A stretch of DNA of 50,972 bases from a virus. Its lineage: Duplodnaviria > Caudoviricetes. How positions within the stretch are numbered: position 1 is the first letter of the stretch; each line of letters begins with the position of its first letter. Positions 2,162 to 11,791 of this stretch are shown in pieces. The notes under the pieces were generated by a model that had not been told where the DNA came from, did not search any database, and worked only from the letters and a program-made list of their open reading frames with translations. The stretch spans positions 1 through 50,972 of IMG/VR virus record IMGVR_UViG_3300044631_002617. One strand, 5' to 3'. A program made the position numbers and the translations under genes.

Positions 2162-2413
2162 ATGAACAAGGAAACCATCGACAACATCCGCTGCGTCCTC
2201 CGCAACAACAACGACTACTACTGGGATCGCCCGAAGCTCGACAAGATCAGCAAGGAAATGGCCGAGTACTCCGAGAAGTACTTCAAGCTCGCCATGAAGT
2301 GGATCGAACTGAACGACGCGCTCACCCGTGCGCTCGAAGTCATCGAGCAGCAGCGTGCCCGCATCGTCGAACTCGAGAACGACCTGTGCCTGCCCGACCA
2401 GAAGGAGAACTGA
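2162..2413 (+). CDS. Hypothetical coiled-coil protein
   Basis: GGAG RBS, heptad-like C-terminus. Confidence 0.75.
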   Translation: MNKETIDNIRCVLRNNNDYYWDRPKLDKISKEMAEYSEKYFKLAMKWIELNDALTRALEVIEQQRARIVELENDLCLPDQKEN

Positions 2414-3021
2414 TGTCCACTACCTACGCCACCCGCACCCGTCCGTTCACCTGCCCGCACCCCATCTCCTCGCTCCAGTCCGAGGCCATCGCCCGTCGTG
2501 CCGAGTTCACCAAGGCCCGTCGTGCCCGCATCGCTGAACTGGTCGAGTCCGCACCGCCCGAAGACCGCGACGAGTTCTACTGGACCATGATCTACGACCT
2601 GGAGCAGGCACCCAAGACCACGGGCCGGGCCCAGCTCCTCGAGTTCGGCATCGTCCCCGTTCCGCCGCAGGAACTGAACAACCCCACCGACCTGCACGAC
2701 GAACTGTGGACGGTCATGGAAGCCCTGTCCCGTGCCGGCATCTACCTCGTCAACACGGATCACCTCACCGACTCCGACCTCTACTCCCGCCTGTACTACC
2801 GCATCCTCGACGAGCCGTGCCAGATGATGCCGCCCGAAGCGGAGTGCGCCGAGTACATCGACGTCCTCCACCCGCTCGACACGGAGTACCCGCTCGGCCG
2901 CGCCCTCTCCAACCGTGGCCCCGCCATCTGCAACCCCGACGTCCCGTACCAGCGTGGCCCCATCTGCACTCTGTCCGGTTGCCTGTCCAACCGCGACACT
3001 TACCTCCCCTCCCGCGTCTAA
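2413..3021 (+). CDS. Conserved hypothetical protein, bacterial-like
   Basis: AAGGAG RBS, TGATG coupling, motifs LHDELW...IYLVNTDHLTDSDLY...EYID...RDTYLP. Confidence 0.8.
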   Translation: MSTTYATRTRPFTCPHPISSLQSEAIARRAEFTKARRARIAELVESAPPEDRDEFYWTMIYDLEQAPKTTGRAQLLEFGIVPVPPQELNNPTDLHDELWTVMEALSRAGIYLVNTDHLTDSDLYSRLYYRILDEPCQMMPPEAECAEYIDVLHPLDTEYPLGRALSNRGPAICNPDVPYQRGPICTLSGCLSNRDTYLPSRV

Positions 3022-3415
3022 CCATACGGGGGCAGGCATGGTTCTCTGACGTGGATGCCCCGGCATGTGCCGGCCATTGCACCATGACCTGCCCCCACCA
3101 AGCCATGGGATATTGCTGCTGTCCGTACTAGTAGGACGGCCTTGCCTTTCCCATGAACACCATGCGTCCTGGCGTTGCCAGGGAGCGGACCCCGTGTCCG
3201 TACGCATGGAGACCGTCAGTGCCATAGATCCTCCGTCTGGCCCACGGTGTGTTGGCATTGACGTCGGTATCCCCCAGCCAACCGCCCTCCTCTGAGCGTC
3301 CATGCCTCTGCTAGCTCCCTGCCGTGATATCCGCGCACAGCTTCCGCAAGCTACTAGTGTCCACCACGATAAGGCTCTGGCTGGTGGGGTACATTCATCA
3401 ACCCCGAGGTCCCAC
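3022..3415 (+). ncRNA. Candidate structured non-coding RNA or long structured leader
   Basis: Intergenic gap with at least six consecutive stems. G-U wobbles favour the + strand. Confidence 0.55.
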
Positions 3416-4090
3416 ATGCAACTCACGCTTCTCCCCACCAAGCCGTCATGCACGGCGTGCGATCTCCATTCCGCCGCGAAGAACGTCGGCATCCCCTCCC
3501 GCCATCTCCCCACCAGCCTGCCGTCTGACCCCACCAACCCGGTCGTCATCGTCATTGGCATGAACCCCGGCACGCAGGAGGACAGGCAAGGCGAGTGCTG
3601 GATCGGTCCCTCCGGCCAGCTCCTGTCCGGCCCGTACCTCGCTGGCTCCGGCGTCGACAACCTCGCCACCATCTACCTCTGCAACGTGGCCCGATGCGTC
3701 TCGCCCGGTGGCAAGCCCAAGCCCGCGCACTACCGCACCTGTTTCAACAACACCCTGCTTGACATCACCACGATCCTGGACCATCATCACGCCGCGTCCG
3801 CCCGTGCCATCCTCTGCGCCGGCGCTGACCCCGTTACATACCTGAGCCGCACGTGGGGCAAGCGTGCCATGTCCCAGCAAGAAGCGTTCCGCGCACAGGG
3901 CATGGCAATCCCGACCCTCCCGCGCACCCACTTCTTCGCCACCTACCACCCGGCCGCAGTCCTCCGGGAGCCCGGTCTCATCCATCCCGTCGCCGACCAC
4001 ATGGCCTTGCTCGCCAACTTCCTGACCGGCGACCTGGCCCGTCCGTCCGCACCCCTCATCCGCACCCCATTCCTCCCGAGGACCACATGA
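3416..4090 (+). CDS. Uracil-DNA glycosylase superfamily, family-4-like
   Basis: CTAC Fe-S motif, GMNPG-x-QED...IGPSGQLL, NVARC, TYHPAAVLR. Confidence 0.9.
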   Translation: MQLTLLPTKPSCTACDLHSAAKNVGIPSRHLPTSLPSDPTNPVVIVIGMNPGTQEDRQGECWIGPSGQLLSGPYLAGSGVDNLATIYLCNVARCVSPGGKPKPAHYRTCFNNTLLDITTILDHHHAASARAILCAGADPVTYLSRTWGKRAMSQQEAFRAQGMAIPTLPRTHFFATYHPAAVLREPGLIHPVADHMALLANFLTGDLARPSAPLIRTPFLPRTT

Positions 4091-4380
4091 ACCTGAGCCC
4101 CGCCGACCTCTCCACCATGCGCCAAGCCCTCGTCGACCTCCGCACGCAGATCGAGGAGACCGGACCCTGCGATCACCCCGTCAACATCTGCGTGTGCGGA
4201 CTCCGCACCACCTACAAGAACCTCGGCTCCCTCTTCTACCGCATCACCGATGGGCAGGTCGGTTTCGTCCCCGAACCGCAGTTCATCGACCTCGAGCAGA
4301 TGACCCGCAACATCCTCGGCATCAAGCCCGACGCCGACACTGCCAACACCGCCTTCCGCAAGGGAACCATCAATGACTGA
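4087..4380 (+). CDS. Hypothetical protein
   Basis: GAGGA RBS, ATGA overlap, CDHPVNICVC motif. Confidence 0.75.
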   Translation: MNLSPADLSTMRQALVDLRTQIEETGPCDHPVNICVCGLRTTYKNLGSLFYRITDGQVGFVPEPQFIDLEQMTRNILGIKPDADTANTAFRKGTIND

Positions 4381-10771: not shown

Positions 10772-11791
10772 ATGGCAACCAACGTAGACGCACAGATTTG
10801 TGTTCGCCGCGACACCGCAGCCAACTGGGCAAGCTCAAACCCCACCCTCCTCAACGGCGAGGTGGGGTACGACACGACCAACAACAAGCTGAAGATCGGC
10901 AACGGCACCCTTGGCTGGAATGCGCTGTCCTATCTGACCGATGCAACTGGAAGTGTTTGGCCTGATCCGGTGCGTAAAGCATTGTGGCAATGCGAATTCA
11001 CCAGCGGAGTCCCAACATATCCAGCCCCGGGTGCTTCTAGCACTTTGCGAGGGTTGACTCCGCAGTATTACTACGGCGCAAACGACCGTAACTACATGAC
11101 TGTGGAGGGCATCGATTCAGAGGAGTGGTCGTATGGTGCGGTTGCAGTGTCGGTGATGGGGCCAAATATGTGGTGCTGGATTGGCGAATCTATTCCTTCA
11201 GGCTATTCAGCCCCCAGCGGTGACAACAATGCCCCAACGGCCCGATACCACACGCAGGAGTTTGTTTCAATCTTCCGGACTCCAATTAGCACGGCCAACT
11301 ACATCCTTTGTGTTGGAGCGTCAGGTAATGGAACTGGCGATCCACGCCACACGGCAAACACTGGATTCTTCTTCAAGTATCAACCGGGCAACAATGGAAA
11401 CAGGTGGCAATGCGTCATCCGGCTTCTTGACAGCACGCCTTGGGCGCAAGTTGAGTATGTCGTGGACAGCGGCATTGCGTTTACGGCATACACGGTTTAC
11501 AACTTGAAGGTAGTAACAACTGAAGGACCGGGTCCGACTCTGATTCCGACTGTTCGGTTCTACATCAACGAAGCACTCGTTGCTACGGTCAACCTGTCAA
11601 TCTACCCATCGACTCAAACCCAGTATTTCTTCCCATTGACGAACAACATTTCGCAAACCACGCAGTCCGGACTTGGTGCATATGACACCCGTGCGTTCTA
11701 TGTGGACTATATGCACCGCCTGATCACCTTCAACACGGTTGTTCCGCGCTTGCGTGACGGCATTACGGCAGTTAGCGGCAGTGAGTCCTAA
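10772..11791 (+). CDS. Tail fibre / receptor-binding protein with Mtd-N-type N-terminus
   Basis: RRDTAANWASSNPTLLNGEVGYDTTNNKLKIGNG...W..L.Y, followed by a beta-rich distal domain. Confidence 0.8.
   Translation: MATNVDAQICVRRDTAANWASSNPTLLNGEVGYDTTNNKLKIGNGTLGWNALSYLTDATGSVWPDPVRKALWQCEFTSGVPTYPAPGASSTLRGLTPQYYYGANDRNYMTVEGIDSEEWSYGAVAVSVMGPNMWCWIGESIPSGYSAPSGDNNAPTARYHTQEFVSIFRTPISTANYILCVGASGNGTGDPRHTANTGFFFKYQPGNNGNRWQCVIRLLDSTPWAQVEYVVDSGIAFTAYTVYNLKVVTTEGPGPTLIPTVRFYINEALVATVNLSIYPSTQTQYFFPLTNNISQTTQSGLGAYDTRAFYVDYMHRLITFNTVVPRLRDGITAVSGSES

Follow-up and report, generated by a model that had tools for sequence, protein, structure and literature searches.

We have found that the hairpins lying in the gap between two genes of a phage genome are a genuine structured RNA family that is absent from Rfam. 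The fold on the + strand is conserved and non-coding, and it includes four helices supported by covariation. The explanation that we favor, and to which we give about an even chance, is that a modular RNA of ~370 nt, structured and non-coding, is read from this strand of the gap, a stable RNA whose rod docks a protein. The window, i.e., the whole stretch of DNA analyzed here, is one IMG/VR virus record in full (50,972 bp). The 127-bp terminal repeat of the record has the typical size of an assembler overlap, so that its coordinates are arbitrary on a circle and the distance to the contig end is meaningless. The features discussed below are listed in Table 1.

Table 1. Modules of the RNA element and neighboring features in the window.
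Feature	Position	Strand	Remarks
UDG, family A DNA polymerase, nucleases and Sak4-like ATPase genes	~1-18.5 kb	+	gene arm
Structural genes		-	
Conserved 202-aa gene of unknown function	2413..3021	+	121 homologs; GC3 0.79
Hairpin 1	3028..3096	+	lower stem 9 + 6 bp, one bulged A; z -2.99
Linker ACCAAGCCA	3097..3105	+	invariant columns
Hairpin 2 (middle module, type B)	3104..3155	+	z -4.50
Three-way junction (middle module, type B)	3160..3209	+	z -3.90
Hairpin 4 (second half, type A middle module)	3214..3263	+	z -2.35
3' domain, near-invariant rod	3267..3392	+	closed by helix 3267-3280/3378-3392, short inner helices; z -2.00
GAGG ribosome-binding site (3406-3409) and UDG-family gene (ATG 3416)	3406..4090	+	PF03167, E 1.3e-12

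The gap and its neighbors

The gap covers 394 nt (3022-3415), from the TAA (3019-3021) of a 202-aa gene to the ATG of the UDG gene with its GAGG, and is as real as the sequence-only reading had taken it to be. The UDG gene and its GAGG site are neighbors that lie outside the RNA element. An alternative UDG start at ATG 3302 was rejected, all 14 UDG relatives aligning from residue 1 of the 3416 start. This in-frame ATG, which stretches the UDG ORF into the RNA, is an artefact of the high GC and a trap for automatic gene callers. A 484-aa antisense ORF (2218-3672, - strand) that covers the upstream gene, the RNA and part of the UDG gene is also a high-GC artefact. On the other side, the likely start of the 202-aa gene (ATG 2413) overlaps the stop of ORF 2162-2413. 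A consensus scan found neither promoter-like nor terminator-like sites adjoining the element in the window, and a blastn search with 2300-4200 against 50,697 phage records gave no match.

The first 4000 positions of the window have a GC skew of -0.24 to -0.35 on the + strand (C > G), far beyond the rest of the genome. Among the replication genes there is one (10772-11791, +) whose product has the Mtd_N domain (E 8.6e-15), the N-terminal part of the tropism determinant of Bordetella phage; the scanned ORFs showed no reverse transcriptase and hence no sign of a diversity-generating retroelement.

Folding energy and coding tests

The folding of the gap was compared with that of 100 dinucleotide shuffles. 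The + strand reached -164.5 kcal/mol against -145.4 +/- 5.7 for the shuffled versions (z -3.35, with 0 of 100 as good), so that the gap folds better than its shuffles. The - strand gave a z of -1.69 (6 of 100 shuffles equally good), and two 132-nt coding stretches, used as controls for the module-by-module values of Table 1, gave -1.47 and +0.21. The stems that had been pointed out at 3028-3042/3081-3096, 3104-3110/3149-3155 and 3160-3167/3202-3209, the last one with its two arms, are all present in the sequence and in the minimum-energy fold. The G-U pairs that had been claimed for the + strand were also found, for example U3270-G3389, kept in 28 of 36 rows; on the opposite strand this pair would be a C-A mismatch, which indicates that it is the + strand that folds. 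The recurrence of CATG in the stems, in turn, proved to be peculiar to this phage, the stems of its relatives having other letters.

A 76-aa reading frame in the gap (ORF 3065-3295) has a GC3 of 0.61, compared with at least 0.73 in nearly all likely genes, and gave no match to a Pfam family. The length differences across it are divisible by three in only 9 of 36 sequences. The exchange of whole modules, the loss of the frame and the low GC3 indicate that the gap does not encode a protein.

Conservation and covariation of the fold

The relatives were first reached through the UDG and the 202-aa protein, which led to related viral contigs. For the main test, 37 sequences were aligned with MAFFT without reference to any structure and folded with RNAalifold (alignment A1), which recovered hairpin 1. 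Over hairpin 1 and the rod, 92.0% of 1,540 cells pair, versus 83.4% in shuffles, and double changes are seen in 17 of the 46 pairs. The covariation score was 0.238 against 0.105 for shuffled alignments (none of 500 shuffles reached 0.238), and when the alignment was slid as a control the paired fraction was 35-43%. The sequences are closely related (the rod model has an effective number of 1.46), and these covariation counts ignore phylogeny; part of the covariation signal may come from shared descent, and most rod pairs never vary. An all-against-all scan of columns for more pairings was dominated by the split between the two types of middle module described below.

Hairpin 1 comprises, besides its lower stem, an internal loop that is conserved and an upper hairpin (3060-3073). 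In A1, 94.9% of its cells are paired and 9 of its 15 pairs have changed on both sides, which supports the stem as first drawn. It was present in 32 of the 37 aligned sequences and wholly absent from the other five. Its ends are fixed. All 21 distinct sequences begin the hairpin with four G and close it with four C, followed by ACCA; between these invariant ends the stem covaries freely. The linker that follows begins with four letters that trail the stem like the acceptor tail of a tRNA, and ends in a CCA (3103-3105) that is invariant in 37 of 37 sequences. The tail 3093-3105 nearly repeats the 5' strand of the rod itself. A third copy of its 12-mer (3093-3104) is found at 3435-3446, in the coding sequence of the UDG; it varies among the relatives and is probably a coincidence.

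In the window, hairpin 1 begins 6 nt past the stop codon. Of the 32 sequences in which the stop could be found, 30 had a distance of 4-9 nt, which was 6 nt in 20 cases. This leaves no room for a promoter and makes the RNA the tail end of the upstream gene's transcript. The hairpin is single copy in the genome (88.1 bits, the next best match having 14 bits) and is thus not a repeated processing signal.

The middle of the element exists in two forms, types A and B, and only this phage has both; its element is 377 nt long, versus 258-325 nt in the other members of the family. Type B was assessed in an alignment of its own, made of the 12 sequences with the middle module of the window. The outer stem of hairpin 2 was paired in 100% of cells, with two of seven pairs changed on both sides, and so were the 19 pairs of the three-way junction, four of them changed on both sides. 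Taken together, these are 26 pairs, 100% paired, with six double changes, so that both of these predicted structures hold. A hairpin homologous to hairpin 4 is present in the type A relatives.

The last ~125 nt are closed into an irregular rod by a long-range helix (3267-3280/3378-3392) that RNAalifold proposed on A1 and that is missing from the stems initially drawn. This closing helix is paired in 98% of cells; a C-G to U-A replacement is compensated in four rows, and six pairs vary through G-U only. In the innermost helix of the rod, all three pairs have changed on both sides. The rod shows a mean column identity of 84% and 57 invariant columns, unpaired ones included (32 distinct sequences), whereas the upstream protein is 50-71% identical across 14 loci. 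The invariance of the letters, also at unpaired positions, points to recognition by a macromolecule.

Three of the pairings initially drawn for the 3' half did not survive the comparison. The local hairpin CCACCA (3361-3366)/TGGTGG (3382-3387) is paired in 98.6% of cells, but it never covaries and excludes helices that do. The stem GTTGGC (3251)/GCCAAC (3277) conflicts with the closing helix. The long-range pairing of 3093-3105 with 3378-3389, paired in 91.4% of cells, shows no covariation and three uncompensated kinds of change. One of its pairs is unpaired in 17 of 36 rows, and a G-to-A change that leaves it unpaired in four rows is compensated by the rod's own 5' strand.

In the whole window there are 12 copies of the heptamer YCTCTGR, versus 31 +/- 5 in shuffles, and two of the 12 (3043 and 3289) are located in conserved loops of the RNA.

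Behind the rod, 10 of 32 distinct downstream contexts contain a further module, in which a single-stranded lead, itself conserved, precedes a GC-rich hairpin of 12 bp. This hairpin has compensatory changes and a conserved loop, and behind it come AUGGU and then the next ribosome-binding site. The module was found in loci L003, L024, L031, L033, L035, L041, L047, L060, L061, L064, L087 and L088 and is absent from this window. Its hairpin, with three U at most behind it, might serve as an operator or as a terminator that lacks a U-run. A pattern search for it gave 13 viral loci, five of which were discarded as chance matches in coding sequences of unrelated phages.

Distribution of the family

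A pattern of the two invariant blocks was found in 21 viral and 25 metagenome stretches, one copy in each, and also once in the window genome, adding up to 47 stretches with 39 distinct element sequences. The gap measured 257-320 nt in 12 related loci and 754 or 961 nt in two others, which have a whole gene between the element and the UDG. A covariance model of the rod (R1) found it in the window and in 9 of the 12 related phage loci searched.

Two phages in which the identity of the upstream protein falls to 42% still have a gap of ~330 nt with a fold z of -6.86 and the same plan, i.e., linker, two hairpins, a domain closed by a helix and a trailing hairpin; model R1 does not detect the element in them.

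The exact two-block pattern had no match in the genomes of 185,579 prokaryote species (one genome each). Model R1 had no match in the 30 bacterial loci of the 202-aa protein family nor in three distant phage loci, and it found nothing in five whole genomes, and then in 101 genomes, of the bacterial order Phycisphaerales to which most of these loci are assigned. As far as searched, the family is restricted to a single clade of phages from fresh water, and the relatives of their genes are binned with Phycisphaerales/Planctomycetota.

The upstream gene and the genes behind the element

In the relatives the element is always preceded by the same 202-aa gene. Its product belongs to no Pfam or PHROG family. 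AlphaFold gave a confident model (pLDDT 91.4), which had no match to a solved fold (best Foldseek E 2.5, best VIA Z 3.5); there was no neighbor in the ESM Atlas, and BFVD gave only an uncharacterized phage protein. The family has invariant His, Asp and Glu positions.

Of the 30 loci with relatives of this protein in species genomes, 26 had labels of Planctomycetota type, most of them Phycisphaerales, which gives a hint as to the host lineage. Those on chromosomes (Phycisphaerales/Planctomycetota bins, L092-L120) are longer, start with Met-Cys and lie beside a lipoprotein-like gene. The phage version looks like a gene captured from a host. In 29 of the bacterial loci there was no RNA behind the gene, mostly another coding gene instead (in the 30th the gene runs off the end of the contig), and this absence indicates that the 202-aa protein does not need the RNA.

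The genes found in the 32 distinct contexts behind the element include UDG, NADAR (E 6e-17), DUF4326, PolA and small ORFs without a family, together with a weak DprA-like match. The site just behind the RNA is a hotspot for varied accessory genes (L005, L012, L044, L051 and others). This variation among relatives indicates that the element is not a leader of the UDG gene. We have rejected a riboswitch or leader of this gene, given the 32 contexts with differing genes, the gene inserted in two relatives and the lack of covariation in the switch pairing. The switchable leader of the replication operon that had been suggested is likewise unsupported: its pairing does not covary, the following gene differs, and 10 of the 32 contexts have an extra hairpin.

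Comparison with known RNAs

Rfam 15 at the gathering threshold gave no match in the whole window, and a relaxed search gave at best chance-level matches (E 0.84-1.4), with scores of 14-20 bits where the thresholds are 40-80. In ten relatives the sole match was to a CRISPR repeat, unrelated and outside the element, and the distant relative L087 gave a chance snoRNA match (E 0.9). ARAGORN found no tRNA or tmRNA gene in the window or in 36 related loci. The earlier failure to match the region to a tRNA or tmRNA thus stands and, with a conserved, non-coding + strand fold that has compensatory changes, so does its reading as a non-coding RNA.

A number of specific candidates were also discarded. 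A tRNA was rejected in the absence of a cloverleaf and a T-loop, hairpin 1 having acceptor-like ends only. The hammerhead ribozyme has a three-way junction and a conserved core (CUGANGA ... GAA). A CUGACGA sits in the internal loop of hairpin 1, but this hairpin has neither the GAA strand nor a third stem, and there was no Rfam hammerhead match. The omega RNAs of TnpB/IscB are expected next to a RuvC-type nuclease gene of ~400 aa or more and transposon ends; the protein adjoining our element has 202 aa, with no Pfam, PHROG or fold match, and the HEARO model did not match. T-box, SRP RNA, RNase P RNA, Y RNA and group I intron were rejected as their cores are missing and there is no Rfam signal. 

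The Rfam 6S models gave no match to the element. The rod of 6S RNA, which binds the RNA polymerase holoenzyme, has ~180-200 nt and a large central bubble; that of the element has ~125 nt and several small internal loops.

Other systems resemble the element in part. The RNase III sites of the T7 early genes are irregular hairpins with a lower stem, an internal loop and an upper stem. Hairpin 1 is similarly irregular and lies directly behind an early gene in what would be a polycistronic transcript, and by analogy the upstream mRNA could be left with a hairpin that protects its 3' end. However, T7 has several such sites, while hairpin 1 is single copy and only the first module of a ~370-nt element with an invariant rod. 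RNase P, on the other hand, cuts 5' of the first G in an acceptor-like helix followed by RCCA, and its substrates with tRNA-like ends include the precursor of 4.5S RNA, the C4 RNA of phages P1/P7 and species 1 and 2 of T4, these T4 stable RNAs being a phage precedent for stable RNAs of unknown role. The long helix of hairpin 1, starting with four invariant G and ending with four C and ACCA, may be comparable. Unlike these substrates, its sequence continues past the ACCA and there is no cloverleaf or T-loop.

The put RNAs of HK022 are cis-acting antiterminators of ~70 nt with two stem-loops, located just behind a promoter. They share with the element that they are phage-encoded folded RNAs of conserved sequence in an early operon that need no particular downstream gene, but the element is five times longer, lies behind several genes, and has no sequence or Rfam link to them. 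Like GOLLD and ROOL, which are found in Rfam, it is a large, ornate, covarying, phage-borne RNA of unknown function; it differs from them in matching no Rfam model, in its smaller size (258-377 nt), in its host lineage and in its fixed position behind one gene.

No description of this RNA was found in the literature searched, nor any occurrence of it in six files of the DNAVirus_N catalogue (PMC10690425). This catalogue contains 8,495 unnamed candidate structured RNAs of 29-151 nt from IMG/VR, i.e., from the same source and with the same kind of evidence. Its size limit is too small for the whole element, although pieces of it could be among the candidates.

What the RNA may do

In the explanation that we favor, the RNA, which is made as the tail of the early transcript of the 202-aa gene, as indicated by its start 6 nt behind the stop, and irrespective of the gene that follows, would persist on this transcript, or be cut from it, as a stable RNA. 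Hairpin 1 would be its 5' boundary, a hairpin for processing and protection. The invariant rod would do the work by docking a protein of the host or of the phage, acting as an RNA-protein particle or a decoy and not as a switch for the next gene. It is the letter-level invariance of the rod that favors a stable RNA with a protein-docking rod. Two points that count against it are the bacterial relatives of the 202-aa protein, which lack the RNA, and the close kinship of the sequences behind the covariation signal. No RNA sequencing run was listed for 2400-4100, and of four runs aligned with the window, the one that may be of RNA covers just 3705-3930, within the UDG gene.

The position of the element, flush with both genes and with no flanking promoter or terminator, suits equally well a cis-acting element of the early transcript, located at the boundary between early and replication genes and with no role for a free RNA. 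By analogy, it could act in processive antitermination, in the manner of HK022 put, or in processing and stabilization like the T7 RNase III sites, whose shape hairpin 1 shares. We regard this as a real but lesser possibility. The element is flush with the upstream stop and, in the window, with the next ribosome-binding site. The transcript might end at the 12-bp GC hairpin that comes next in 10 of the 32 contexts, as well as in the distant relatives, or this hairpin might be a terminator that is read through, and a hotspot of differing genes is what would be expected between transcription units. Nonetheless, invariance over 125 nt, unpaired positions included, goes far beyond the needs of a processing hairpin, hairpin 1 occurs once in this genome and not at several gene boundaries, and the trailing hairpin, with at most three U behind it, is absent from the window.

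A new class of phage ribonucleoprotein or decoy RNA seems unlikely. Here the RNA, with its tRNA-acceptor-like 5' hairpin, would be freed from the first early transcript by the host RNase P, and the invariant rod of 125 nt would capture a host machine in Phycisphaerae. The targets might be the RNA polymerase, the ribosome or a tRNA-directed defence enzyme, and in a variant of this scheme termination of the upstream ORF would make the RNA alternate between two folds. The element is located at a hotspot that elsewhere carries genes such as NADAR, a type known from counter-defence contexts.

A switch coupled to translation is, in our opinion, quite improbable. A ribosome at the upstream stop would open the foot of hairpin 1, and the tail 3093-3105 would pair with 3378-3389, unfolding the rod and altering the next gene. 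The hairpin does lie, in 30 of 32 sequences, within the footprint of a terminating ribosome, and the tail, which nearly repeats the 5' strand of the rod, is complementary to the 3' strand of the rod in 91.4% of cells. Against it, this pairing does not covary and is broken in the rows mentioned above (four with the G-to-A change, 17 of 36 at one pair), hairpin 1 is missing from five of the 37 sequences, and there is no common expression platform, since the downstream gene and its ribosome-binding site differ.

We are at least as doubtful about a folded single-stranded DNA signal, either a replication origin or a priming site on a displaced + strand. The element adjoins the UDG/PolA module, no primase was recognized among the ORFs scanned, and a G-T wobble in DNA is indistinguishable from G-U. 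However, the region is transcribed in the folding sense anyway; the element is necessarily within a + strand transcript, and this makes RNA the simpler reading. In addition, the following gene is not always a replication gene, there are neither iterons nor an AT-rich stretch (GC is 0.65 around the element), and a C-rich RNA is, to judge by ColE1 RNA II, unfavorable for a stable R-loop primer.

Finally, although high-GC sequence folds well by itself and both the 76-aa ORF and the long antisense ORF are open here, it is scarcely credible that the gap holds no more than chance hairpins of a GC-rich spacer or a small gene such as ORF 3065-3295, against which stand the compensatory changes in 17 of 46 pairs, the poor pairing of the slid controls (35-43%), a conservation exceeding that of the flanking protein, and a frame kept in 9 of 36 sequences with a GC3 of 0.61.

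Significance

To our knowledge, large and highly conserved non-coding RNAs are rare, and most of those that were followed up proved to do something fundamental. The element described here is well defined, with clear ends, four covariation-supported helices, an invariant core and a single copy. As a sequence family it is new to Rfam, and its newness in kind depends on its function. It is specific to phages of the freshwater Phycisphaerae, their probable hosts, a group that has hardly been studied and about whose phages very little is known. It offers a concrete target for structure probing, cryo-EM and pull-downs, and its covariance model can annotate a gap that has been left blank in dozens of phage genomes.
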